Assembly (NCBI GenBank): GCA_951406725.2
Contig: OX597833.1
Span: 24,180,001 to 24,244,000, forward strand
DNA: 64,000 nucleotides
Direction: 5' to 3'
From: Octopus vulgaris
Lineage: Eukaryota
In this document: positions 1-57,930 of the stretch, piece after piece
How the letters are laid out: every line of letters begins with the position of its first letter
Position numbering within the stretch: position 1 is the first letter of the stretch
Program-made: the position numbers and the translations under genes
The notes under the pieces: model-generated
What the model was told of the DNA's origin: nothing
The model's input: only the letters and a program-made list of their open reading frames with translations
Databases searched by the model: none

Positions 1-321
1 GGTCATGAATGCACTTACAGTTACCCTCTGAGACACAAGTCTGGGCAAGGTTGTTTATGGAAGACCAGTAGTTGCTCATACATACTGGCCTCCCATCTTC
101 ACGCTACCAATGTTATTCATGGGAAAGGCAAAGGTTAATACAGCTTGGCACCAGTGACATTGTAACTCGTTTCTACAGCTGAGCAAACTGAAGCAACGTG
201 AAATAAAGTGCCTTGCTCAAGAGCACAACACACAGCCCTGTCCTGGAATCAAACTACCTCATAATTGTGAGCCTGATGGTCTAACCACTGAGCCATATGC
301 CTTCGTGTGTGTGTGTGTGTG

Positions 322-3720: not shown

Positions 3721-4565
3721 TGTGAGGTAGTGAGTTTGATTCCCAGACTGGGCTCTGAGTTGAGTTCTTGAGTGCAAGACACTTTATTTCACGTTGCTCC
3801 AGTTACCTCAGCTGTAGAAATGAATTGCAACATCACATGTGCCAAGCTGTATCAGCCTTTACCTTTCCCTTGGATAACATCAATGGGCAACTGCTAATCT
3901 TCCATAAACAAAATTGCTTAACTTGAGACTCAGAAGGTAACTTTCTAGGTGCAATCCCATGGTCATTCATCCCTCTGTCATACCCTCACCTCTCATCACC
4001 AGGCACAAGGCCACCTCTTCTGATGACCTTCGCCCCTTTTTAAAGGACCTTTGTCTTGCAAGTTACTTGGTGACCTCGTCAGTGCTAGTGCCATGTAAAA
4101 AGCATCCACTCCACACTGCAAAGTGGTTGGCGTTTGAAAGGACATCTAACTGTAAAAACCATAGCAAAACAGACCTTATCAGTGCTGGTGCTATGTAAAA
4201 AGCATTCAGTCCACTCTGTAGGGTATTAGGAAGGGTCTCCAGCTGTAAAACCCATGCCAAAACAGACAGTGAAACCTGGTACAGTCTTCTGCCTAGCCAG
4301 CTCCTATCAAATCCTCCAACCCATACCAGTTTGGGAAATGGCTGTTAAATGATGATGATGATGATGACTATGATGATATATATATATATATGTGCACACA
4401 TGTATGAATGTATGTCTATATATATGCATGCACATATGTGTATAGATCAGATGTGTAAATGGTGAAAGATCCTGCTCAGACTGAATGTGATGTGGGGATG
4501 AAACAGCTTCATAGATAGAGTCATAAAAGTTGAGACAATCTTGGGAAAACTAGACAGAAGACTGT

Positions 4566-4957
4566 ATCAAGTTGGCAACTAAGTTCCCACTGTTTTTTTA
4601 ATGCCAATATGACTGAGGAAGCCATTCAGATGCATGGCTGGGAAGTGCTGCCACACCCGCCGTACTCTCCTGATTTGGCACCAATGGATTTCCACCTCCT
4701 TCAATCTCTTTCAATTGCTATGCACGGAGTTTCGTTCAATACTGATGCAGAATTGAGAGCTTGGTTGGATCAAATTTTCGAGTCAAAATTGGGTGATTTC
4801 TACCAACAAGGTATTGAAAATCTTGTTGAACATTGGGAAGAAGTTGTAAACAACAAGGGTAAATACATTATTGATTAATTAGTTGTTATTTTTTATTAAA
4901 CCTTTTAAAAAATTTTGATTTAAAAAAAATGGCAGGAACTTAGTTGCCAACCTAATA
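4566..4957 (+). mobile_element. Internally deleted mariner element
   Basis: TIRs gttggcaactaagttcc / ggaacttagttgccaac; ORF 4609..4878 has WEVLPHPPYSPDLAPMDFHL. Confidence 0.9.
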
Positions 4958-10179: not shown

Positions 10180-10871
10180 AATGTGTATATATATGTATAT
10201 TTAAATATGTATGTATGTATATATGTGTGTATGTGTGTGTGTGTACCTGAAGCTGATGAGTCATTCTCCATAACTAGAGTGAATCATCAACTTTGAATAA
10301 GTAAATAAAAAGTATTACAGTCAATGTGTACTTTTAATTCTATCTCGTTATGCGTGTGTGTATGTGTGTGTGTGTGTGTGGGTGTACAAATGCATGGCAT
10401 TTATATATGTCTATAGATGTGTCCTTAATTAATAAGGAATTTCATAATTAATAAGGAATTCATCTAAAGACAGCCCTGTATTAATACTGTGTTACACATT
10501 CTTGGAGAAATTTATCCAATTGATGTTTGAAATATTTAACGGGAATCATTGCTACATTTCATTTTTGTATTTGGTTTGCATGATTCTTGATGTGAATCTT
10601 GATATATTGGAAAATATTTTGTAACTTGGGAGGGTCATAATGCCAAAAATAAATACATGTACTGATTCTATTTCACTTCTTTCTTGTTATTAGTCAATTG
10701 GACTATCATTTAAGCAATCAATCGATTCTTTGATTAATCATTTGCTCAGACAATTACCTTTCATTCACAATCTCATCAATGAAATGCTGTGGTGAAAGGA
10801 CTGTCAAACCTAGCTGATTGATTGACTAACTGAATGATTAATGAAAGAAGTGATTAGTTAATTTGTTAAAT

Positions 10872-11152
10872 CAGTGGTTCCCAAAGTGGGCATTATTGCC
10901 CTCTCTTCCAGGGATGGGCCTGATGGAAAGATCCAGGCACGGTTTGAAGAAAAGTGTGGTGATAATAGAGTGGCCAAAGGGGCGGGGAGCGATGTATATG
11001 AAAGCAATAAAATAATGGAGTTAATTAGGTTTAGTTTTATTTCTGAAATACAGTTGTCCTGAATTTGCTGCTAAAAGTGGTGGTGGTGGGTACTAGGAAT
11101 GTGATCTGAGTGCCAAGGGGGTGGCAGCCTCAAAACTCTTGGGAACTAGTTG
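10872..11152. mobile_element. hAT-like MITE (second copy 14165..14426)
   Basis: cagtggttcccaa... / ...ttgggaactagttg termini typical of CAG-ended hAT MITEs. Confidence 0.55.
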
Positions 11153-11236
11153 ACAAATGAAATTAAAGAAGTGAAATATAACTAGTGGATGTGTTTATTA
11201 CTTGTATAAAGGCCCTTCCAAGATACAAAAATTCAT

Positions 11237-12539
11237 TCTGACTACATATGTAGAAAATCGGTGTGTGTTTGTTTGTGGTGTTGTTATCTAACTTCTCCTA
11301 CATAGTTTTATTGATTTTGATGAAACTGACACATGAGTAGAACTCATATCTGGAAACTTCGTGACATACTTAGATAGTTGAAAAATCGATAATACAGTCC
11401 CTGGAAGAGACCTTTATATCTGCCTCATATAATTATTTTTTTAACACCCAAGGGAAATAACTCATAGCACCTGCATAACATCTTTTTAAACACTCAAGGG
11501 AAATAACCCATTTCATTGTTTAGGTTTGATTACTTTGAATATTGATATTTTGTGTGTTCAATTTCTAATTTTTGCAGACAATATCACTTTTATACTTTAT
11601 TTAACATGTGAGTAGAACTCATGTCTGGAAACCTTGTGACATACTTAGATTGTCGAAAAATATCGATAATGGATCCTTCTATCTACTGCATATTATTTAT
11701 ATTTTATTTAAACAACCTAAGGAAAATAACCCATACCACCTGCAGTTTTTAGTGAAGTGATCAATATTTGATTCTCACGATCAGCCAATCTAATTCTGGA
11801 TTTCACTACTCACAGTTTTGAACTGCTACACATTATTATTGCACTTCCTTAATTTGAATCTTAAACATTAAAGACTTCATTCATACATTTCTATACATAC
11901 ATACTTTTTTGAATGCCCAATTTACTCTGACAATTTTGCATTTTACAGTTACACTTTTTCCATGACAGTTGATAAATTTTTTATCCCACAACGTATTTGT
12001 AGTGGCTTCATGCAGGCATAGCATGGATTCGATCCTCGATTGCCAAATTTCACTTAACACTTCAACAGTGCTTTTCTCACGGTAAAACAATTCTGTGAAT
12101 GACAGCAGTTATACATTACCCAGATGCCTTCACTAAGCAGAATGCTTTGCCACTTAACCCTTCTTACTTCTTCTAGGCCACCAGGGGCTGAAATGGAGAT
12201 AACAGACCGCCAACAAAATCATTTGCTCTCAACAATATGTCTATCCCTCTGGCTGCTTTTTGATAGTTATAAAAACAAGAACTCTGTAAGCTAAAGTCAG
12301 TTACTGAGAGTGACCATCAGTGCGTGTGAACATTATTATTGCAGTTTCTTCAAACATTTCATTCATATATTTATATACATACAATCTCTCTCTCCTCCAG
12401 CTGACGGTTTTTTGTACTTTTTCATGATGGAAAATACACCTTTTGTGACAGTTATAACGAAATTGATTTCTTATATCAGAGAAATAAGGCGTTTCAATAC
12501 AACATTTTTACCCTGGAAATTACCGGACACACCAGCTAG
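11237..12539 (+). mobile_element. Non-autonomous Helitron-like element (second copy 14508..15761)
   Basis: TC start followed by a (GTTT)n microsatellite; internal duplicated block (catgagtagaactcat..gtgacatacttagat..aagggaaataac); 3' weak GC hairpin then CTAG|T. Confidence 0.55.
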
Positions 12540-15500
12540 TATATATCATATATACGTACACACAGAAACACATGAACAAGTACACCTACAAACAACTAAC
12601 AAACAAATACACTTTTCAGACAGTCCCATTCATTCACACATACATACACACTAATCCAAGCTCCGAATGCTTCAGTTTTCAGCACTGATCCTGGTATATC
12701 TAGAAAAAGTGATTTGTTGGTTGTGCCTTGTAATGTCATGTTTGTTCCTTCTCAAGCCACACTTGGCTCATAAGGGCTGGTTTCCTGATTTCCTTGGATG
12801 GGACGCCGGTTCATCACAGGTGAGCTGCTATATGCAGGAGGAAAGAGTTGGGGAAAGTTGTGGTGAAAGTGTCAGCAGAAGTTCACCATTACATTCTGCC
12901 AGAGCCACATGGAGCTTAGGTATTTCGCTAGTAAACACATACATTGCCTGGTCTGAGATTCAAACCTGCGATCCCTTGACTGTGAGTCCGTTTCTCTAAC
13001 CACGAGGCCATGTGCCTCCACTTGTAATGTCACAGGCCTGCTCAATCAAAATTTATCTCTAGCTACACAACAAAAATTCTATTCTAATGATTGGACCCAT
13101 TCCCTAGAGCTTGGGTTACTGTGAATTTGAAATATATTCTAATTTCTGTGCCATAGATTGTAACCCTTACTGAATTAGATTTCTGCCACAAATTGTCTTT
13201 CTACTACTAACTCTCTTCCTGTTTCCTGCTGAATTGTCAGACAAAAAAAAGTATAGAAGACCAGCAGTCGCCAATGCATATCAGCCTCCCCTGACCGTGC
13301 CACCAATGTTATCCAAGGGAAAGGCAAAGGCTGATACAGCTGAGTGAACTGGAGCAATGTGAAATAAAGTGTCTTGCTCAAGAACACAACATGCAGCTTG
13401 GTCTAGGAATCAAACTCACAACCTCACGATTGCGTGCTCGATGCTCTAACCACTGAGCCATGCACCTTCACACACACACACATATAAATGTGTATATATA
13501 TGTATATTTAAATATGTATGTATATATGTATGTATGTATGTATGTGTGTGTGTGTGTGTACCTGAAGCTGATGAGTCATTCTCCATAATTAGAGCGAATC
13601 ATCAACTTTGAATAAGTAAATAAAAAGTATTACAGTCAATGTGTACTTTTAATTCTATCTCGTTATGCGTGTGTGTATGTGTGTGTGTTGATGTATAAAT
13701 GCATGGCATTTATATATATCTATAGATGTGTCCTTAATTAATAAGGAATTTCATAATTAATAAGGAATTCATCTAAAGACAGCCCTGTATTAATACTGTG
13801 TTACACATTCTTGGAGAAATTTATCCAATTGATGTTTGAAATATTTAACGGGAATCATTGCTACATTTCATTTTTGTATTTGGTTTGCAAGATTCTTGAT
13901 GTGAATCTTGATATATTGGAAAATATTTTGTAACTTGGGAGGGTCATAATGCCAAAAATAAATACATGTACTGATTCTATTTCACTTCTTTCTTGTTATT
14001 AGTCAATTGGACTATCATTTAAGCAATCAATCGATTCTTTGATTAATCATTTGCTCAGATAATTACCTTTCATTCATGATCTCATCAATGAAATGCCACG
14101 GTGAAAGGACTGTCAAACCTAGCTGATTGATTAATGAAAGAAGTGATTAGTTAATTTGTTAAATCAGTGGTTCCCAAAGTGGGCATTACTGCCCTCTCTT
14201 CCAGATCTAGGCACGGTTTGAAGAAAAGTGAGGTGATAACAGAGTGACCAAAGGAGGGGGGAGCGATGTATATAAAAGCAATAAAATAATGGAGTTAATT
14301 AGGTTAAGTTTTATTTGTGAAATACAGTTGTCCTGAATTTGTTGCTAAAAGTGGTGGTGGTGGGTACTAGGAATGTGGTCTGAGTGCCAAGGGAGTGGCA
14401 GCCTCAAAACTCTTCAGAACCAGTTGACAAATGAAAATAAAGAAGTGAAATATAACTAGTGGATGTGTTTATTACTTGTATAAATACCCTTCCAAGATAC
14501 AATTCATTCTGACTACATATGTAGAAAATTGGTGTTTGTTTGTTTGTAGCATTGTTAGCTAACTCTTCCTACATAGTTTTATTGATTTTGATGAAACTGA
14601 CACATGAGTAGAACTCATATCTGGAAACCTCGTGACATACTTAGATAGTTGAAAAATCGATAATACGGTCCCTGGAAGAGACCTTTATATCTGCCTCATA
14701 TAACTATTTTTTTAACAGCCAAGGGAAATAACTCATAGCACCTGCATAGCATCTTTTTGTGTGTTCAATTTCTAATTTTTGCAGACAATATCACTTTTAT
14801 ACTTTATTTTGACGTGTGAGTAAAACTCATGTCTGGAAACCTTGTGACATACTTAGATTGTTGAAAAATATCGATAACAGGGCCCCTCCAACGGATCCTT
14901 CTATCTACTGCATATTATTTATATTTTATTTAAACAACCTAAGGAAAATAACACATACCACCTGCAGTTTTTAGTGAAGTGATCAATATTTGATTCTCAC
15001 GATCAACCGACCTAATTCTGGATTTCACTACTCACAGTTTTGAACTGCTACACATTATTATTGCACTTCCTTAATTTGAATCTTAAACATTAAAGACTTC
15101 ATTCATACATTTCTATACATACATACTTTTTTGAATACCCAATTACTCTGATAATTCTGCATTTTACAGTTACACTTTTTCCATGACAGTTGATAAATTT
15201 TTTATCCCACAACGTATTTGTAGTGGCTTCATGCAGGCATAGCATGGATTTGATCCTCGATTGCCAAATTTCACTTAACACTTCAATGGTGCTTTTCTCA
15301 CAGTAAAACAATTCCGTGAATGACAGCAGTTATACATTACCCAGATGCCTTCACTAAGCAGAGTGTCTTTGCCACTTAACCCTTCTTACCTCTCCCAGGC
15401 CACCAGGTGCTGGACTGGAGATAACAGACCGCCAACAAAATCATTTGCTCTCAACAATATGTCTATCCCTCTGGCTGCTTTTTGATAGTTATAAAAACAA

Positions 15501-16570
15501 GAACTCTGTAAGCTAAATTCAGTTACTGAGAGTGACCATCAGTGCGTGTGAACATTATTATTGCAGTTTCTTCAAACATTTCATTTATATATTTATATAC
15601 ATACAATCTCTCTCTCCTCCAGCTGACGGTTTTTTGTACTTTTTCATGATGGAAAATACACCTTTTGTGACAGTTATAACGAAATTGATTTCTTATATCA
15701 GAGAAATAAGGCGTTTCAATACAACATTTTTACCCTGGAAATTACCGGACACACCAGCTAGTATATATCATATATACGTACACACAGAAACACATGAACA
15801 AGTACACCTACAAACAACTAACAAACAAATACACTTTTCAGACAGTCCCATTCATTCACACATACATACACACTAATCCAAGCTCCGAATGCTTCAGTTT
15901 TCAGCACTGATCCTGGTATATCTAGAAAAAGTGATTTGTTGGTTGTGCCTTGTAATGTCATGTTTGTTCCTTCTCAAGCCACACTTGGCTCATAAGGGCT
16001 GGTTTCCTGATTTCCTTGGATGGGACGCCGGTTCATCACAGGTGAGCTGCTATATGCAGGAGGAAAGAATTGGGGAAAGTTGTGGTGAAAGTGTCAGCAG
16101 AAGTTCACCATTACATTCTGCCAGAGCCACATGGAGCTTAGGTATTTCGCTAGTAAACACATACATTGCCTGGTCTGAGATTCAAACCTGCGATCCCTTG
16201 ACTGTGAGTCCGCTTCTCTAACCACGAGGCCATGTGCCTCCACTTGTAATGTCACAGGCCTGCTCAATCAAAATTTATCTCTAGCTACACAACAAAAATT
16301 CTATTCTAATGATTGGACCCATTCCCTAGAGCTTATATTCTAATTTCTGTGCCATAGATTGTAACCCTTACTGAATTAGATTTCTGCCACAAATTGTCTT
16401 TCTACTACTAACTCTCTTCCTGTTTCCTGCTGAATTGTCAGACAAGAAAAAAAAAAAAAACTTGTTTGCAGAGAACTCATTAAATAATTATGTAACAAGC
16501 TTGTAAAGTGTCAGGGTTGAAATTTGAAGTATAATTACTTCTGTGTAGATATGGAATTCTTTTTGTAACC

Positions 16571-27835: not shown

Positions 27836-29338
27836 CTACATTTTAAACAATAGATTACAATAAATGGTAGACATGAAAATATAACATGATTATATATATA
27901 TATATTTATATCTGCATGCACACAAATATGTATATACATGTACACACAGATATGTATATACACATATATATGTATGAAGCATTGTCTGATATAGATAAAT
28001 GCTTTCATATTATTTTTTAAAGCCAAAACAATGCAAGTTAAAAGTAAAATCCATTCTACTATAGGCACAATCACTGAAATTATGTGGGAAGGGGTTTAAT
28101 CAATTACATCAACTCCAGTGCTCAACTGGCCCTTATTTTATCAGTTCTGAAAGGATGAAAGGTAAAGTCAACCTTGGTTGCATTTGAACAAATTACAAGA
28201 AATAACACAAGTCAATGGTTTGTATTGTTAATTTATATTTCAACTGTTCAGCATTAGGACCCTTTCTCGGGGGAATCTTGTACAGTATAGAGTAGTCAGC
28301 TCATAATACCACATCTCTGAAGATTTCCTGAAGAAAGGGTCCAAACCCCAAACTACTGAAATACAAGGTCAAAGTACAAACCATCAATCAATATGATATC
28401 TTATAACTTGTTCAAATGCTGCTACGGTTGACTTTAGCTTTAATCCTTTCAGGGTTGATAGAATAAGTACCAGTAGTGTATTGGGGGTTGTTGTAACAGA
28501 TTAAAACTCCCCACCACTCAAAATTTCTGGTCATGTGCCTACAATGCAAAGGATTATTTCTTACAACTTGCATTGTTTTGACTTCAAAAAAAAATTAAAA
28601 ACATTTAAATGCATATATGCATCTATGTGTGTATATAAATATATGTATGCATGTATGTAGGCAGAAGGAGACTGTGGTTATGAAGTTTGCATTGCAACTA
28701 CACAGTTTTGGATTCAGTCCCATTACATGGAATCTCGCACTTTGTGTTAGTCAATCTAAGGTTACAATTAGAAACACTTGCTCAAGGTGGAGCATGGTGG
28801 GATTGAACATGGAAACATGGTTGCAAAATAAACTAATTAATTACACAATCATGCAGAGATCTATATATAATCAGGCACATATTGTACCTGATTGTATATC
28901 ACAGGCAGGCACAGAAGACATATGGCTTAGTGGTTAGTGTATCCGGCTCACACTTGTAAGGTTGTGAGTTCGTTTCCTGGTGGTGATTTGTCTCCTTGAG
29001 CAAGACACTTTATTTCATGCTGTTCCACTCCACTCAGCTGGCAAAACTGAGTTGTACCTATATTTCATGCTGAATATCCATGAGAACTACACAAAGGCTA
29101 TGTGTATCTGTGGAGGGTTCACCTGTTTCAATATTAATTTCATGAGATGGCTGTTCCATTGATCGGATGAACAAGAACTATTCATTATCATAACCAACAG
29201 GGTGTCAGTTTAACACATGCACATATGGACACAAACTTACAAATATACATCAACATGTAGTTATACACACATATACACAATTTTCCTTTTGCACTCACTA
29301 TATACATTACCTAGGTATGAAACACAGCCTCACTCTCT

Positions 29339-29388
<50 letters not shown>

Positions 29389-29514
29389 GAATAAGATTCT
29401 TTATTCAATTAATATAAGATTGTTGATTTTGTTTAGGTTAATTAGGGTGTGACATTTGTAGGAGGTGAAGTAGATGGATATGGTTGAGAAAATAGTTCAC
29501 CACTTCTTTCACAC

Positions 29515-29568
<54 letters not shown>

Positions 29569-30897
29569 ATAGAGAAAATTGAAAATGCAAATCTTAAGCA
29601 GTCAAACAGATTAAACACATTAGGGTGTGACATTTGTCAAAGTAGGTGAAGTAGATGGATATTTATACACACCAACATAGTTCACCACATGTACAGGTAT
29701 GAAGATTCTCCAAGGGTATAAAGAATAAAACCAAACATACATAAAATTATAGCAGAAATATAAAAATATTTAAAAATACATATAAAATTACATAAAAATA
29801 AAGATTACATGTAAAGAGTTATGCGTGATAAATATAGGAGGTGCAAAATGAATGAGAGTTTGAATCATATATTTATACACACCAACATAAATCACACATG
29901 TACAGGTATGAAGATTCTTTTTGCCGAACCACTAAGTGATGGGGACGTAAACACACCAGCATCGATTGTCAAGCAATGCTAGGGGGACAAACACAGACAC
30001 ACAAACACACACACACACACACATATATATATACATATATACGACAGGCTTTTCAGTTTCCGTCACAATCCACCACAAGGCATTGGTCGGCCGGGCTAGC
30101 AGAAGTGCCCAAGATTGATAAATCACTACCCACAGCCACTCCTAGGAGTAAAAGCGTCAATTTTTAAAATGGCAAACCATCTCTGAATTGTCTAAGAATC
30201 GTGGCTGTGTGGTAAGTAGCTTGCTTATGAACCACATGTTTCTGGGTTCAGCCCTACTGTATGGCACCTTGGGCAAGTGTCTTCTACTATAGCCACGGGC
30301 TGACCAATGCTTTGTGAGTGGATTTGGTAGATGGAAATGAAAGAAGCCCGTCATATATATGTATATATATATATATGTATGTGTGTGCATATATGTTTGT
30401 GTGTCTGTGTTTGTCCTCCCAACATCGTTTGACAACCAATGTTGGTGTGTTTACATCCCCGTAACTTAGTGGTTTGGCAAAAGAGACCAATAGAATAAGT
30501 ACTAGGCTTACAAAGAATGAGTCATGGGGTCGATTTGCTTGACTAAAGGTGGTGCTCCAGCATGGCCACAATCAAATGACTGAAACAAGTAAAAGAGTAA
30601 AGAGAGTATATATTTATATACATTTATATTTTTTCTATATTTTTATTCTTTATACCCTTGGAGAAACTTAATACAGGTACATGCATCATTTATGTTGATG
30701 TGTATAAATATATATGATTTACTTTGATTGAATGTTTTCATTTATGCATTCGGGAATCTGTTTGACTGCTTAAGATTTGCATTTTCAATTTTCTCTACTT
30801 TATATTTTTTCACATTGGCTCTCTGTAAGCACTCTGTAAATAGCCCATACATTTTAAAACATATTTAATATTATACTCACACACACATATATATATA

Positions 30898-30937
<40 letters not shown>

Positions 30938-30941
<4 letters not shown>

Positions 30942-32211
30942 GTTGGCAAGAAAGTAATTTTGTTTTTCACAAATAGATAGAGTTACGATATTTTTGAATG
31001 GCTTTTCTTAATGTTATGATTTTTTTTTCCTTTTGACATTTGATTGTTGCTACCTTTAGCTTACTTCAGAAGCAAATTTTGCGTAATTTTGTTTACAATT
31101 GTTAGCTCAGTGTCAATTTTAAAATGGAGTAGCAAAAATGAACATTTTCACCATATTTTCCTTTTTATTTCTGTAAAGGTAAGAAAGTTGCAGAGGCTCA
31201 CAAAGAGATATGTGAAGTTTATGGCATTGATTGCTTAACAGAACGCACATGTCAAAAATGGTTTTAAAAAATCCGTTTTGGGGATTTTTTACTCAAAGAT
31301 GACCAACTAAAGTTGATGATGGCTGAATCAAAGCCATAACTGAATCTGATTGTCATACAACTGCGTGAGAGATTGAAGAGAGAGATTAAATGAATCACAC
31401 ACAACAATTGAAAATCACTTAAAATGTCTTGGACTTGTTAAGAAGCTCAATATTTGGGTTTCACATAAATTGAAAGAGATTCACTTAATACAATATATCA
31501 ATATTTGTGATATACATCTCAAACACAATAAAATTGATCTTATTTTGAAATGAAACATCACTGGTGATGAAGAATGGATTGTCTACAATAACATCAATCA
31601 AAAAGGATTATGGTCCAAGCATAATGAACGAGCACAAACCACATCGAAAGCTGAATTACATAAAAAAGTCATGCTGTCAATTTGGTGGGATTACAAAAGT
31701 GTTGTGTATTTTGAGCTGCTTCCAAGGAACCAAACAATCAGTTCAGATGTTTAGTGTTAACAATTAATGAAACTGGAGGAAGCAATCAAAGAAAAACGGC
31801 CAGAATTGGCAAATCATAAAGGAATTGTTTTCCACCATGATAACACTAGAACCACACATATCTTTGGTAACTCATGGAAAAGTATTGGAGCTTGGTTGGG
31901 AAGTGATACCACATTCACTACATAGCCCTGATCTTGCACCATCAGATTACCATTAATTTCAAAGTTTACAAAATTCTTTGACTGGTAAAACTTTTAATAA
32001 TGATGATGACCTGAAATCGCACTTGCTTCAATTTTTGGTTGATAAGGACCAGAAGTTCTATGAATGTGGTATCATGAAGTTGTCAGAAAGATGGCAAAAG
32101 AACATCAAACAAAATGCAAAAATATATAATTGATTAAAGTTCATTCTTTGTATGAAAAGAAAATGACTTTTATTTCACACTTAAAAGCTGAAATTACTTT
32201 CCTGCCAACCC

Positions 32212-32212
<1 letters not shown>
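30938..32212 (+). mobile_element. Full-length decayed mariner transposon in (TA)n
   Basis: TIRs ttgggttggcaagaaagtaattt / aaattactttcctgccaaccca; ITGDEEWIVY and SPDLAPSDYH motifs with stops and frameshifts; ~1.27 kb. Confidence 0.92.
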
Positions 32213-32246
<34 letters not shown>

Positions 32247-32284
32247 CACACACACACATATATATATATACACATATATATAGG

Positions 32285-32632
32285 CAAATTTATAGACACC
32301 ACCAAAGTGACAGAGGTGCAAAGTGGTACCACCATTGCTAGAAATAAGAGTCAAAATGACTCATTAGCCACAAAAGCACTATCTCCCTACGGTCGCAGAT
32401 ATAGCCATATCACATAATTTCAAATTTTGATGCAGAGCATATTAATTTTCGTCAGTGGCTAAGATGCTCAGCATCAAAATTTAAAATCGCGTGATATGGC
32501 TATATCTGTGTAGGGTGCTTTGTCTCCCTTGTCAATGTAGAAAGATAGTGTTTCTGTGGCTAACGTGTCATTTTGACTCTTATTTCTACAAGTGTCTTTG
32601 TACCCTCTGAAACTTTAATAACATCTATAAAT
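32285..32632. mobile_element. Fold-back element with hammerhead near its centre
   Basis: Diverged inverted arms, e.g. tagaaataagagtcaaaatgac / gtcattttgactcttatttcta and cagatatagccatatcac / gtgatatggctatatctg. Confidence 0.65.
32402..32461 (-). ncRNA. Type I hammerhead ribozyme motif, intact core, on the GST pre-mRNA strand
   Basis: UAGCCA-CUGACGA-AAAUU..AUGC(UCU)GCAU..AAUUU-GAAA-UUAUGUGA-UA-UGGCUA; helix I 6 bp perfect, AUA cleavage triplet. Confidence 0.75.
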
Positions 32633-32765
32633 ATCTCTTTAGGTTTTTAAATTGCTAATAAGCCACCCACATTATTTATATCTGCCTATATATATGTAAT
32701 GTATGCATGTATGTGTATATATATATATATATATATCTGTGTGTGTGTGTGTGTGTGTGTGTGCG

Positions 32766-32807
<42 letters not shown>

Positions 32808-33029
32808 ATTGTTAAAGAGGACAACAAACATTAAGACAAGGCAAACATCTCAAGTCGTATACAATATTATTATTGGAAAAATTCAAAGTCATATAGCTGT
32901 TTCAGGGATATCCCTGAGTATGAGATATTACCAGTGAGTGTGTTAAATTATAAGGCACAAAAAGAAAATGACTCTCCCCAGACACAGAAAGTGGATTTGG
33001 TAGACAGAAACTGAAAGAACCCTGTTGTG

Positions 33030-33064
<35 letters not shown>

Positions 33065-33274
33065 TTGTCTGTGCGTCTTTGTATCTGTGTTTGTCCCCCC
33101 AATCATCACTTGACAACTGATGTTGGTGTGTTTATGTAACATAAACACACATATGCATAGTGTATATAAACAGATGAGAGTGTGTGTGTGCGTGCGTGTT
33201 GGTGTTTCTATTTTTCTTAGTTTATAAACAAGTATATTTGATCCACACCTTTTCAAAGAACAAATAGCTTTCAC

Positions 33275-33326
<52 letters not shown>

Positions 33327-34209
33327 AGGCGTTCATGTTTATATCATTAAAGAATAAACAGCTTTCATCTATATATGTGTGTGTGTATATCATTATGTAA
33401 ATGATCAGGTATACATTAAACGATGATGATGATGATAATATATCCTTATACATAAACTTGCACATACACACATACATACATGTATACAGACACACACGCA
33501 CACACGCATCATATGTTTTCACATAAATGTGTGAAGCCATACTTTTATGTCACATAAAAGTAATACTTGAAACACACAGGCAATGGAAGCACATTGACAA
33601 TGAACCATACTTTAATAAACTGTGAATTTGCATAATAATAACAAGCATTTCTGATATAAGCAAGGCACAATGGGGAGAGTAATGGTTGAGTGCAAAAGTT
33701 TACTTTGAAGTTACATAGTCCTGTGTTGAATCCCCATAATTGGCACTTTGGGCATGGGCCTTCTTCAATAGCCTTGGGTTGATCAATATCTTGTGAGTGG
33801 AATCTGATTAATGGAAACTCTCTCCTTTACTTGTTTCAGTCATTGGATTGTGGCCATGCTGGGGCACCACCTTGACAAATTTGTAGTCAAGTGAATCACA
33901 CTCAGTACTAATTTTTTCTTTTTAGGGGTGGGATTTATTGTTTCAGTCAGTTTTGCCAAACTGCTAAGTTGCAAAGATGCAAACAAACTTTATCTGGTTG
34001 TCAAGCAGTAGTGGGACACACATATACACAAATAGATAACAGGCTTCTTTCAGTTTTCTTCTACCAAATCCACACACAAGGCTTTGGTCAGCCCAAAATA
34101 TTGTAGTGGACACTTGTCCAAGGTGGTGAGTAGTGGGACAGAACTCAGAACTATATGGTTGGGAAGCAAACTTCTTACCACAAGCCATGCCAGCACCTGT
34201 AAAGTTAGA

Positions 34210-34251
<42 letters not shown>

Positions 34252-34679
34252 TGGCTGTGTGGTAAGTAGCTTGCTAACCAACCACATGGTTTCGGGTTCA
34301 GTCCCACTGCATGGCATCTTGGGCAAGTGTCTTCTGCTATAGCCCCGGGCCGACCAAAGCCTTGTGAATGGATTTGGTAGACGGAAACTGAAAGAAGCCT
34401 GTCGTATATATGTATATATATGTATGTGTGTCTATATGTTTGTGTGTCTGTGTTTGTCCCCCCAACATCGCTTGACAACCGATGCTGGTGTGTTTACATC
34501 TCCGTCACTTAGCGGTTCGGCAAAAGAGACCGATAGAATAAGTACTGGGTTTACAAAGAATAAGTCTCGGGGTCGATTTGCTTGACTAAAGGCAGTGCTC
34601 CAGCATGGCTGCAATATATATATATATATATATAATGATAAATATCAAAGTGAGTTATATACAGTAGCGGTAACACATT

Positions 34680-34964
34680 GTGACGTATTTTTGCCATTTC
34701 AATATGGCTAACCCCTAAGGGTGGATGCTACTGTAGTGAAGGAAATCTAATTCTCGGCGACAACTATGATTGTCACACGCTGACGAGAGGTCAATACCTC
34801 GAAACTCGAGTCCGTGTGTATCATAAGTTGAAGACGGGAAGGATGACTTCCCTTTGCAAATACTGACAGGACACAGATAGTGTGTCTATGGCCTCCTGGG
34901 GCTAAAAACTACAGTAGCATCCACCCTTAGGGGTTAGCCATATTGAAATGGCAAAAATACGTCA

Positions 34965-34965
<1 letters not shown>
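34680..34965. mobile_element. Fold-back Penelope-like terminus carrying the intact hammerhead
   Basis: Perfect 58-bp inverted repeat 34680..34737 / 34908..34965; homologous to 2169..3355; between (TA)n tracts. Confidence 0.75.
34761..34830 (+). ncRNA. Type I hammerhead ribozyme, intact core, extended bulged helix I
   Basis: CACACG-CUGACGA-GAGG(UCAAUA)CCUC-GAAA-CUCGAG-UC-CGUGUG; helix I continues CAAC-UAUGAU/AUCAUA-A-GUUG beyond an internal bulge; predicted cleavage after C34812 (GUC). Confidence 0.9.
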
Positions 34966-35004
<39 letters not shown>

Positions 35005-35116
35005 TCTTTTACTTGTTTCAGTCATTTGACTGTGACCATGCTGGAGCACCGCCTTTAGTCGAGCAAATCGACCCCGGGACTTATTCTTTGTAAGCCCAGT
35101 ACTTGTATATATATAT

Positions 35117-35139
<23 letters not shown>

Positions 35140-35155
<16 letters not shown>

Positions 35156-35360
35156 TACATACATATATATATAAATATACATACATATATATATAAATAT
35201 ACATACATATATATATAAATATACATACATATATATATAAATATACATACATATATATATAAATATACATATATATATATAAATATACATATATATATAT
35301 ATAAATATACATATATATATATAAATATACATATATATATATATATAAATATACATATAT
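35140..35360. repeat. ~20-22 bp AT-rich minisatellite (ataaatatacatacatatatat)n
   Basis: About 10 tandem units visible. Confidence 0.85.
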
Positions 35361-35407
35361 ATATTATATATATACTTTATTTAAAAGCAGCAAAAATATA
35401 ACAAAAG

Positions 35408-35445
35408 CTGTTACTCAGAGTTTCACGTTCCTGTTCGTTAGACAG
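35408..35445 (-). ncRNA. Minimal hammerhead-like motif, one core substitution
   Basis: CUGU-CUAACGA-ACAGGAACGU-GAAA-CUCUGAG-UA-ACAG; the same GAAACUCUGAGUAACAG half recurs twice, inverted, at 27279..27379. Confidence 0.6.
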
Positions 35446-38400
35446 TTTTGTTAAAATAGAACAGAAATAATGATATGATCAAAACTAGTTAAAGGATACA
35501 CCCTTAAAAATGGATTTGTTCCATTGGTCCTTTCAAATAACGGTCTTAGGCATGTGATAAACAAAATAAATGAATTCAATATAAATTCAACCTATTATGA
35601 AAAAAATCGAGGAAAAAACCTTAAATCGAAGAGTGTATTCAAAATACATATTGTCAATAATTATGAAATATAATTCGATTAATACAATTAATACATTAAA
35701 AATTAAAATATTTTACAACAGTATATACACATACTAAACCATCAATATACATATATACATCAAAATACACAGATGGATATACAGACCACATACATATGCA
35801 GACATATATATGAAAGATGTAAATATATGGTTGTGCCCCAGCGGTGGTGCCCCAGCATGGCCACAGCCTTCGTGCTAAAACATTTTTAAGGATTTAAGGA
35901 TTTATACACACAAATACACATATACATATGTATACATATGTACGCAATCTTCCCCGTACGCAAAAACTACTTGGTGTATACATATAGACTAGAAGTAAAA
36001 TGCAGAGAGGGGAAAAAAAAGAAAAAGAAAAGGTAAGGATCTTATAAGCAACAGTTAGCTAAAGAAGTAAGAGAAGGGGAGGGGCACGTAAAGTTAAAGG
36101 ACTCTATACAAGTAACAAATAGGTGGAGAAAAAATACTTTTCTGTAAGGAAGGAAAGGAAGAAGGAAAGAAGGCAGAATATGCATAACGAACGTACACAA
36201 AATAAAATTATGTATACATGTGTGTATAAAAGAGTATATTAGCAATAAATACACATATAAGAACACATATGTAAATATATGGAAATAAGTGCGTAAATAC
36301 ACATCCACACAAATTCAAGTGAAATACATGCATACATATGCATCCATGTATGTATGTGCGTAAATATAAACATACATGCTTACTTATACATATACATAGG
36401 CGCATACATATGAAAACATATCCATGCCAACAATACAAACATCCACATAAAAACATGTCTAGGTCCTGATGTATATACAAACAAAATTATTTAAAAAAAT
36501 TGCTGAGTGTATAATAATAAAATATGGATAAAAGACATGCAAAATAGAACACCCTATATTGAATTATCTATAAATAAAACAATTAAAATAGGTTTATAAA
36601 ATGAAATAAAATAAAAGCAGAATCTTAAGCAAGAAAAGATTTTCTTTTTTAAGATTCTGCTTGAACCAAGTGAAATTGTAGTTGTGGCCAATGCCAGTGC
36701 TGCTTGACTGGCACCCATGCCGGTGGCATGCAAAATGCATTATTTGAGCATGGCCGATTCCAGTGTCACCTGACTGGTACTCATGTCAGTGGCATGTAAA
36801 AAGCACCATTCAAGCATGGCTGATGCCAGTGCTGGTGGCACATAAAAAGCACCATTCAAGCATGACTGATGCCAGTGCTGCCTGACTGGCACCCATGCTT
36901 TGACACGTAAAAACACCCACTACACTCTCAGAGTGGTTGGTGTTAGGAAGGGCATCCAGCTGCCATGGGAGGAGGAGGAGAGATGAGTGAGTGAGGAGTG
37001 CCTGTATAGAGTCAGCACAAGATCAGTAAACTCTGAGGAGCACAGTGGTTATTATTGTTGTGGAAGAAAAAACAAAGGGAGGATAGAGAGAGAGCATACC
37101 CGAGGGTCAGAGACCGAATGACATAAAAGCTGTGAGTGACTTAATAGCAATCTGCCAAGTGGCCTTTCTCTGGAAGCAGCCTGGGATGCTTGGGTGTGCA
37201 ATAGTAGCAATGCTATGTCCTAAAAGTGGGAGCAATACTTGATTGTGGACCAAACCCAAACTGTGTAGATTGTCAGTGATTGTGGGGCGGGAGGTGGGCG
37301 CTGAAGTATTTTCCAGTTTGTAATATAGTGAATTGGAAAAACTTCAATCGTTGACAAAATTTCTCTCTCAGAGTTAAGCGTGTTTTAAACTCTCAAGGCA
37401 CAAAGCAAGGGAGGTAACTCTAAAGAAATGATTTCTAAGTACTAAGCATAAATAGGTACAGTATAGCTGAATGGTTAAGGAATTCCTTTAGCAGCCGCAT
37501 GCAGTTGGGTTCAATTCTGTTGTGTGGCATGTTGGGCAAATGTCGCTTCCTATAGCTTTGTGTTGACCTTTATGTAGAGAGTGAAATTCGGTAGATGGAA
37601 AGTGTATAGAAAGATTGTTGAGAGGATTGTACTTGTATTTCAAAAGTACAACTTTGTTACACAGCTACTTACACATTAACTGAAGAGGAGGTAATTCAGT
37701 TGACCGACAGAGATGGACTAAATAAATCTCGGATTTGGGGAGAGGAATTAATCATTTAAATCCACCCCCTCTACTTGACTGATACTTTATCAATCCCAGA
37801 TGGTTGAAAGGCAAAGTTGACTGTGGAATTTGAACTCAGAATGTGAAGAGCATAATCTTATAAGATTTTAGGGAAATGTAAAGAATGCAATTAAGAGTGG
37901 GTCTTGTTACATTTAAAGCAAATATTCCCAGTGATTGACTACCAACACCTCCAGTCTTGGGTTCCAATACCCTAAGTTAAGGAAGCCTGCTCCATGCAGC
38001 CACTTGGTTTGCTTGAAAACAGCAAAAGAAATCTCTTTCAGAGTCTTATTTTAAAATGTTAAAAAATATAATAAAATAAAAATATATTGTTAAAAAAATA
38101 TAAAATGAAATAAAAAAAAAAAGGAAAAGGAACAACTCTATTGCTGGTCAAAAATTAGACAATTCAACTATGACCACCCAATCAGCATGGTGAACATGTG
38201 AAGTCTTCTGTAGGGTAATGGTAGGAAATATCTGGAGAAGTCAGACCTAGAGGTTTCACCAGTTTTCTACTTTCTGTCACTGTATATTTGCCATTATATG
38301 TCAAGGAACCCAATAAGGAGCTTCTATGCAAGAAACAGCAGTTAAATCATCCTCAGATCACATCCTATTGTCTTTAAAAAATACTGGATAAATACACAAT

Positions 38401-40035
38401 TTGATTAAATAACTGGTAAGTCAGTAGTGTTTGTTTTTCATACTAAACTTTACTATAAATTTCAGCCTTCACTTCATATGTAAACTAATTTAAACCAATT
38501 AGACACATTGAATGACCATCATGTGTATAAAAATTTGACTGTGGACAGAAAAAGGGGAGGTCAATATGTTTATATTCTCGTCAGTAATTATTGAATTCAC
38601 TCTTACCTAACAATTATGAAATTGTGTTTAAAGCCATAATTATTAGATAAATTATTAGTCATAGAAACCAAGCCAAAAAGGCGGTGAACTGGCAGAAACG
38701 TTAGCACGCTGGGCAAAATGCTTTACGGTATTTCGTCTGCCATTACGTTCTGAGTACAAATTCCGCCAAGGTCAACTTTGCCTTTCATCCTTTCGGGGTT
38801 GATTAAATAAGTACCAGTTACGCACTGGAGTCGATATAATTGACGTAATCCGTTTGTCTGTCCTTGTTTGTCCCCTCTATGTTTAGCCCCTTGTGGGCAA
38901 TAAAGAAATAAGAATCCAAGCCAAATCAGACTGGAGCTTTGTGCAGCTCTCCAGCTTACCAGCTCCAGTTAAACCATCTAACCAATGCCAGAATGGACAG
39001 TGGCTGTTGAATGATGATGATGATGATTTTTCTTCTAAAGCAGGTAGACCAATCAAAATATTTGACATACTTTTGGCTGTCAATTTAATTAAATAAATTA
39101 CTGATATGTCACATGGTTTTAAATACATTTGCATAGGCTTCAGTTAAGAGTTGGGAGATGAGAATGTAAAAATGTTTGACAGTATAGTCTACTTGATTCT
39201 TTTCTTTCTGTCTATAAGTACAACAGCCATTTATGACTGACCAGTGTATCTGATAAATTTAATTAATTTTATAAATGCAGTGACAGCAAAAACCTAAGGA
39301 TTTTTGTGAAGTTTAGTATGTAGAGGATGGTCATACCTGGAACACATTTGGTGCTGGGTCTGTTTGATCATTATTAACCTAGGGTTGAATAGCTCTAATA
39401 GCAATGTGCTACATAATTGTTAAGCAGGGTCAACCAGTTTAGAAGAGAGTAAGTGGTATCTACATGACCACAACAACAGCTTCCACAACAATAACGAGAA
39501 CAATAGCTGCAACAACAATAAGAACAACAGTAACAGCTACAGAAATAAGAACAACAGTAAACAGCTGCAACAACAATAACAAAATTTTCCACACTGACAA
39601 CAATAACAACAGCCATAAGTATACAATTATCAACAACAACAACAATACTGGATCTACAAGGGCGACAAAAATTCAATCATGATGCACACATGTGTCACCC
39701 TCTCTCTTTCTCTCTTACACACATACACACACAAATAGATATTCAGACACATGACAAAGCTTCTATTTATCAGCTGGCTGGCTAGATATAACAGCCATTC
39801 TCTCAAATCAGAACATATGGAATAAGGCAGTCCTTGGTGCACTGTGTCTGAACAAAAAAAAAAAAACCCAACAAAAAACAAGCCAAAGGATTTACAATAC
39901 AGGAATACCATTTAGTGCAGGTCTGCTCAATGTGGGCTGAACTGGAGAGGGAGACGGAGGAAGAAGAGAAGAAGAACAACAATCACACACACATGTATAC
40001 ACAAGATTAACAATGAAGATAAGTTTTCTACTCAC

Positions 40036-57121: not shown

Positions 57122-57930
57122 TGCTCATTCCTCAGGTTGACCCTCCAGTTCCTGGCCAAAGCTTGGTCCTGCGCTGCCAGTATAGTGCTCTCAGTCTCTC
57201 TTTCTTTTTTAGGGTTCCTTTCATCAGCCAATCCCACATTTTTTTCCAGCAACTTCCACAATCAATTCCATGTAGCCGCTACAGAAGTTACTGGAAAATA
57301 AGTGGGATTGGCTGATGAAAGGAACCCTAAAAAAGAGATCGAGAGCAGCGCAGGACCAAGCTTTGACTACGAACTGGAGGGTCAACCTTAGGAATAAGAA
57401 AGTTTCTCCACTGTGCCGTATCTGCAATTGCCCATATCACGAACAAATGCTTTAAACTTGCCCCAAACCATTAAAAGTTGTCGCGACACACCAGATAGCG
57501 AAAGTGCTACACTGGAAAGTGTGCGAAAAGAGGGGGCGAGAAAGAGGCAAGACGTGGTATGAACACAAACCGCAGAGAGTGGCGGAGTCGGACACTAGCA
57601 AAATCCTCTTAGATTTCCCAATCTAAACAGATCAGTTGCTTGAGCATAACATCTCGGATCTAGTGGTGGTGGTCAAGGTGCACCACATATGTTATATAGT
57701 GGATGTTGCATGCCCCTTTAACTCACGAATAGTCAAGAAGGAAGGCGAAAAGATAGATACAACCCTCTTCAGTACAAAAAAGCCGGGCTATGGAAAATGA
57801 AGAAAGTAAAGATAGTGCCAATTATTGTTGGTTACTTGGAAACAGTATCAGAAAGCATCAAGAAGAATATAAAGGAAACTGGAATAGAGTGCCCAGTAAA
57901 ACCGTGACAAAAGGTTTGCCTCCTTCGCAC
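57122..57930 (+). mobile_element. R4/Dong-like RLE LINE 3' fragment with 5' inverted duplicate
   Basis: CRIC..H..C knuckle, RH.QIAKVLHWKVC, WYEHKPQRV, DLVVV..IVDVACP; 57124..57238 is an inverted copy of 57300..57398; abuts (AAC)n(AAT)n. Confidence 0.8.

Follow-up and report, generated by a model that had tools for sequence, protein, structure and literature searches.

The type I hammerhead motif at 32402..32461 on the minus strand of the Octopus vulgaris stretch analyzed here (64,000 nucleotides of contig OX597833.1, referred to below as the window) very probably belongs to a decaying, head-to-head inverted pair of truncated hammerhead repeat copies, which is predicted to be trapped in a duplex and most likely does not cleave. 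The pair occupies an intron of an omega-class GST gene, where the motif lies on the sense strand.

The hammerhead and its inverted arms in the GST intron

Translation located four minus-strand exons of the GST gene, near 40.1, 27.8, 25.8 and 22.0 kb. Pfam GST N- and C-terminal domains were found in three of these four exons, and the closest solved relatives of the product are omega-class GSTs (E 5e-20). The host intron spans 27836..40035 on the same strand, with a GT at 40035, an AG at 27836, a length of 12,200 nt and phase 2. The first-pass annotation, made from the sequence alone, had described a 12.2 kb GST intron with the hammerhead in sense orientation; exon translation together with the GT/AG sites bears out both the length and the orientation, and the motif would therefore be transcribed with the pre-mRNA.

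The letters of the motif were likewise borne out on re-reading, as minus-strand positions 32461..32402 give UAGCCA CUGACGA AAAUU-AAU-AUGC-UCU-GCAU-CAA-AAUUU GAAA UUAUGUGA UA UGGCUA. Its parts, all on the minus strand, are helix I (32461-32456/32407-32402), the core box CUGACGA (32455-32449), helix II with an A-U closing pair (32448-32422), the core box GAAA (32421-32418) and helix III, a degenerate palindrome (32418-32409), with the predicted cut site between 32408 and 32407. A strict type I descriptor returned two matches in the window, namely this motif and the one at 34.8 kb described below, and none in 60 order-2 Markov simulations of 64 kb, so the motif is not a product of chance. No Rfam hammerhead family appeared among the best 150 of 182 matches at E<=1, these matches being microsatellite-driven miRNA.

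The motif had been called intact, a description that holds for the core, where CUGANGA, GAAA and UH are all present, but not for the stems. Its closing pair is A-U rather than the G10.1-C11.1 found in 27 of 45 aligned family copies and highly conserved in hammerheads (PMC4209133); in addition, one helix II pair is broken and two palindrome letters are altered. The A10.1-U11.1 change re-establishes pairing and is unique among the 45 copies. Helices I (6 bp) and II (5+4 bp) can form, with pair probabilities of 0.96 and 0.48/0.88 in the isolated motif and a predicted 0.00 within the full hairpin, and the sixth pair of helix I derives from the inversion junction, not from the element. Folded by itself, the motif does no better than shuffled sequences (z -0.24). 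Helix III is not stable, with a monomer pairing probability of 0.006 and a palindrome self-duplex of -4.2 kcal/mol, compared with -12.9 and -16.0 kcal/mol in two other copies. Retention of all core letters, a full helix I and a palindrome that still pairs throughout (Watson-Crick plus G-U), as seen in this copy, is a minority state in the family.

The hammerhead lies whole within a 5'-truncated copy of a 348-bp unit at 32279..32460 on the minus strand, which runs from -54 to +157 of the unit, counted from the cut site, and has a 23-bp deletion by comparison with the opposite arm. The opposite arm, at 32460..32675 on the plus strand, is an inverted 5'-truncated copy (unit -38 to +191, including a one-sided tail) that holds only the 3' half of a hammerhead and has lost G12. 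The two arms, 32460-32279 (-) and 32460-32675 (+), join head to head and are bounded by a (TA)n/(CA)n microsatellite at 32209..32282 on the left and a (TA)n/(TG)n microsatellite at 32690..32805 on the right. The inverted arm proposed in the first-pass annotation is thus present (120 of 144 aligned columns identical), and the end at 32632 that had been given for the region falls short, since the element reaches about 32675. The hairpin formed by the arms folds at -174 kcal/mol (z -15). No second family copy was found on the hammerhead's strand within the window.

Several other features of the window were recorded. Segments that we take, from an SPDLAP motif, to be Mariner-like transposase remnants lie at 31800-32210 (+), 19756-19490 (-) and 4534-4875 (+), the first of them adjoining the left microsatellite of the element. 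An apparent direct duplication of about 2.5 kb, with 3.2 kb spacing and near-identical translations, occupies about 10540-13050 and 13850-16270, and a further long hairpin of about 140 nt at 57200-57339 gave a sub-threshold miRNA-like match in Rfam. The second type I hammerhead, at 34774-34818 (+) within about 34667-34966, is antisense to GST and shows the perfect palindrome ACUCGAGU, a self-duplex of -10.7 kcal/mol and a G-C closing pair. As had been claimed, it shares no similarity with the GST sense-strand motif outside the core (best match 9 nt, E 0.76). The 34.8 kb family adjoins an endonuclease fragment of a Penelope-like element (PLE) in one of 30 endonuclease loci (L081), which suggests that this family is a PLE pseudo-LTR.

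The dispersed 348-bp repeat family and its spread

Genome searches yielded 467 and 476 first-look candidates, of which 40 were scored in each, and similarity and motif searches together define a repeat family of at least 55 distinct loci. Copies were gathered by similarity, and nine loci through an exact motif that includes the core; the tallies that follow thus do not describe a random sample. The period of 348 bp was read from a natural direct-tandem copy (L032). The unit is non-coding, its longest stop-free frame being 70 codons in 461 nt, and the hammerhead region is repeated on the same strand in two further loci (L047 and L067).

PLE insertions are marked by an inverted 5'-truncated copy and a one-sided tail of 30-40 bp, as described in 10.1101/2021.04.23.441226. 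Both marks were observed in the family. Copies in both orientations, arranged as head-to-head inverted arms, occur in 21 of the 55 loci, and in 16 of these 21 the two arms stop at different distances from the cut site, one at +137..157 and its partner at +185..196, which leaves a one-sided extension of about 40 bp; family ends at +191 coincide with the end of the query, but in three loci traced by way of the upstream unit the end falls at +193..196. Outer 3' ends pass into (TA)3+ in 39 of 76 cases. The 5' breakpoints seemed to cluster, but this pattern was discounted as a bias of the queries.

Long inverted arms and TA-rich flanks are also what a palindromic MITE or fold-back DNA transposon would show, with the hammerhead as its passenger. 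We regard that origin as exceedingly improbable, given that the inner arm ends vary freely from locus to locus, that 34 of the 55 loci contain a single orientation, that the two outer ends are mostly offset by about 40 bp, and that the unit occurs as a direct tandem; together these features argue for retrotransposition and not for fixed terminal inverted repeats. Judged from the sequence marks, the family was likely spread by Penelope-type retrotransposon enzymes. In the history we propose, a Penelope-type RT/endonuclease would have copied the RNA into a (TA)n tract, which would leave a pair of 5'-truncated arms, one end carrying a tail.

The family alignment comprises 45 copies from 58 region matches, after 13 partial ones were dropped. 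The usual form combines the G10.1-C11.1 pair with a helix III whose palindrome measures 10 or 12 nt, and alternative palindrome centres are CG, CUAG and CCGG. The ancestral palindrome guessed in the first-pass annotation, AUCACGUGAU, persists unchanged in 3 of the 45 copies, with 12-nt versions in others. Eight of the 45 copies retain an intact core, and a single one of the 45 combines core, G-C pair, stems and a perfect palindrome. Non-CpG core cells depart from the commonest letter in 40 of 445 cases (9.0%), compared with 246 of 2473 (9.9%) at other positions (Fisher p 0.60); the core varies as much as other positions, and there is thus no sign of selection after insertion. The divergence of the copy at 32402..32461 is 0.11, which equals the family median.

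By analogy, the palindromic helix III of the usual form points to dimer action in the active ancestors, a mode known for hammerheads in metazoan and PLE elements (PMC4209133; PMC7229834). The once-active parent would then have worked as a dimer, by way of the palindromic helix III shared between tandem units. An array with two intact tandem hammerheads was not encountered in the 55 loci, the search being non-exhaustive, and no same-strand pair one period apart was present among 63 exact 15-mer matches. These 63 matches are not usable as a copy number: they overcount the 348-bp family, as they take in a locus of a different family (L100, G000:C22:33843100-33845100). This locus, considered as a longer element of the 348-bp family and rejected, carries a third hammerhead family with the palindrome AAUCGAUU, in a head-to-head inverted pair 1.8 kb apart whose two ends pass into (TA)n.

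The unit shares with non-LTR retrozymes a non-coding length within 170-400 nt, one type I hammerhead and direct tandem arrangement. From its sequence, the family appears to behave as a non-LTR retrozyme or as a PLE pseudo-LTR. The broken ORF at 52810-52205 (-), which we take from its motifs to be a Penelope-type GIY-YIG endonuclease, had no match in Pfam. This putative endonuclease returned 9515 first-look candidates in the genome, and the window's fragment had no match in any of the 55 family loci. Conversely, the 348-bp unit was found in none of 30 PLE-endonuclease loci examined out of 150 scored, with one endonuclease family probed. Near position 143 (+) of one locus (L092), a minimal hammerhead with a 2-nt insert in helix III was seen beside a PLE endonuclease fragment. 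No description of the family was met in the titles and abstract openings listed for the hammerhead-octopus and hammerhead-Penelope-dimer literature; it may already be catalogued, as repeat libraries (e.g. Repbase and Dfam) and bioRxiv supplements lie outside this comparison.

Predicted masking, candidate editing and proposed cleavage in the GST pre-mRNA

The order of transcription bears directly on whether the motif could act. Minus-strand transcription makes the complement of the plus arm before the hammerhead, whose 5' half falls in the hairpin loop and whose 3' half is complementary to RNA already made. In folding of the growing transcript, 36 of the 40 nt of the hammerhead 3' half are paired to the upstream arm once the motif is complete. 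Forcing the hammerhead fold is predicted to cost 37 kcal/mol in the nascent RNA and 45 kcal/mol in the full hairpin, and even in the isolated monomer it costs a predicted 4.2 kcal/mol, for a probability of about 1e-3. All of these energies are model predictions, and the duplex would lose stability if edited. The suggestion in the first-pass annotation that the opposite arm could mask the ribozyme is borne out by this predicted capture. In the sequence of events we envisage, RNA polymerase would make the masking arm first, the 3' half of the hammerhead would zip onto it, and the resulting duplex would probably be edited by ADAR and then removed with the intron. With the masking arm made first and the hairpin predicted to be far more stable, the hammerhead is most likely not cutting GST RNA.

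A working cis ribozyme would have the opposite consequence, cutting the GST intron during transcription and tuning GST splicing or output, as reported for CPEB3. In its favour, the sense strand carries the complete set of core letters together with helices I and II, a precedent exists in the intronic ribozyme of CPEB3 (PMC10919898), and the insertion is nearly invariant among sequencing runs, as contigs from two guessed-DNA runs and one run of unclear kind, bearing three organism labels and covering about 32383-32678, show 0, 0 and 1 differences. We nonetheless consider such a ribozyme extremely unlikely: the hairpin is favoured over the hammerhead fold by a predicted 37-45 kcal/mol, transcription reaches the masking arm before the motif, helix III hardly pairs in the monomer and finds no same-strand dimer partner in the window, the divergence of the copy sits at the family median, and a contig of a run guessed to be RNA crosses the cut site. 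Published assays tend in the same direction, since no cleavage could be detected for a single PLE minimal hammerhead (PMC4209133) and 8 of 9 tested retrozyme dimers were inactive (10.64898/2026.07.22.740005). Upstream competing structures are also known to have blocked ribozyme assembly in a self-cleavage system, in vitro and in vivo (PMC2817708). The first-pass annotation had proposed that cleavage would cut the intron co-transcriptionally; given the early masking arm, the poor monomer fold, the lack of a same-strand partner in the window, the lack of selection on the core and the one probable-RNA contig across the cut site, this is unlikely.

That contig comes from a run (X8) whose RNA nature is guessed. 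Its depth is 2.7, and its span of 32283-32548 includes both the cut site and the arm junction. It contains 8 differences; every one of the 6 listed is a plus-strand T>C, equivalent to A>G on the GST strand. These define six candidate A-to-I editing sites on the minus strand, at 32380, 32425, 32480, 32492, 32495 and 32503, in one contig of low depth from a run guessed to be RNA; 32380 is ambiguous, as paralogous DNA contigs vary there too. In the predicted hairpin every one of the six is paired, and four lie in the masking arm. Six differences would fall in one transition class with a chance of about 2e-4 under a 2:1 transition model, while a 5' G was found at 0 of 6 sites, which is not significant alone (p 0.21). 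The cluster agrees with editing of the hairpin by ADAR, which inverted repeats commonly undergo and which is very frequent in octopus (PMC5625713). If the A>G changes do reflect ADAR editing, GST-sense transcription passes through the region, the RNA there forms a double strand, and at least some of the time it stays uncut.

Editing might instead act as a gate, with the hairpin holding the ribozyme off until ADAR loosens the duplex, after which a fraction would refold and cleave. Such a mechanism could draw on the six candidate A>G sites, all within the duplex and four within the masking arm. A gap of about 40 kcal/mol is nevertheless unlikely to be closed by six I-U pairs, the freed monomer would still be poorly folded (about 1e-3), and the family shows no sign of selection. 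This alternative is therefore very unlikely in our estimate, and we retain the reading of a decaying pair held in its own duplex.

Significance and comparison with known systems

The motif at 32402..32461 is one fossil of a hammerhead retroelement family and matters little in itself. The family has broader relevance, as a 348-bp hammerhead repeat with Penelope-type scars supports, in an invertebrate, the idea that Penelope enzymes serve non-LTR retrozymes, which 10.64898/2026.07.22.740005 argues mainly from vertebrates. Penelope-type inversions also give ready-made intronic double-stranded RNA and are a plausible source of the heavy non-coding editing reported for octopus. A more speculative idea, which we hold to be quite unlikely, is that the Penelope-made inverted arm is a built-in off switch: sense-strand intronic hammerheads would be tolerated mainly if an upstream arm masks them, and ADAR editing could gate residual cleavage of the GST pre-mRNA. 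If it is true that masking decides the survival of sense-strand intronic hammerheads, this would explain how a genome tolerates many self-cleaving motifs.

Metazoan non-LTR retrozymes, as described in PMC7229834 and 10.64898/2026.07.22.740005, resemble the family in having a non-coding unit (348 bp here, inside the published range of 170-400 nt), a single type I hammerhead in each unit, a short palindromic helix III fit for dimers, and both tandem and solo copies. The copy at 32279..32675 differs from them in being a truncated inverted pair rather than a tandem, and no tandem array with two intact hammerheads was found in the 55 loci. The main text of PMC7229834 makes no mention of cephalopods.

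With PLE pseudo-LTR hammerheads the family shares a long helix II, a palindromic helix III and G10.1-C11.1 in most copies (PMC4209133), as well as an inverted 5'-truncated neighbour, a one-sided tail and microsatellite flanks, and the motifs in both are mostly single and dispersed, with some close opposite-strand pairs (PMC4209133; 10.1101/2021.04.23.441226). In contrast to the PLE hammerheads, the family lacks an extra base between positions 9 and 10.1 (PMC4209133), and no RT or endonuclease ORF was found linked to the 348-bp unit in the 55 family loci or the 30 endonuclease loci.

CPEB3 and the amniote intronic hammerheads likewise place a self-cleaving motif on the sense strand of an intron, and they are described as highly conserved, with CPEB3 active in cis (PMC10919898; PMC7761336). 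The motif at 32402..32461, however, is a repeat copy of median divergence, with a weak helix III and buried in a duplex. With the inverted or palindromic repeats that ADAR hyper-edits, it shares a long, repeat-derived intramolecular duplex and clustered A>G changes on the transcribed strand (PMC5625713); it differs from them in that the changes come from a single low-depth contig and in that its duplex contains a hammerhead.
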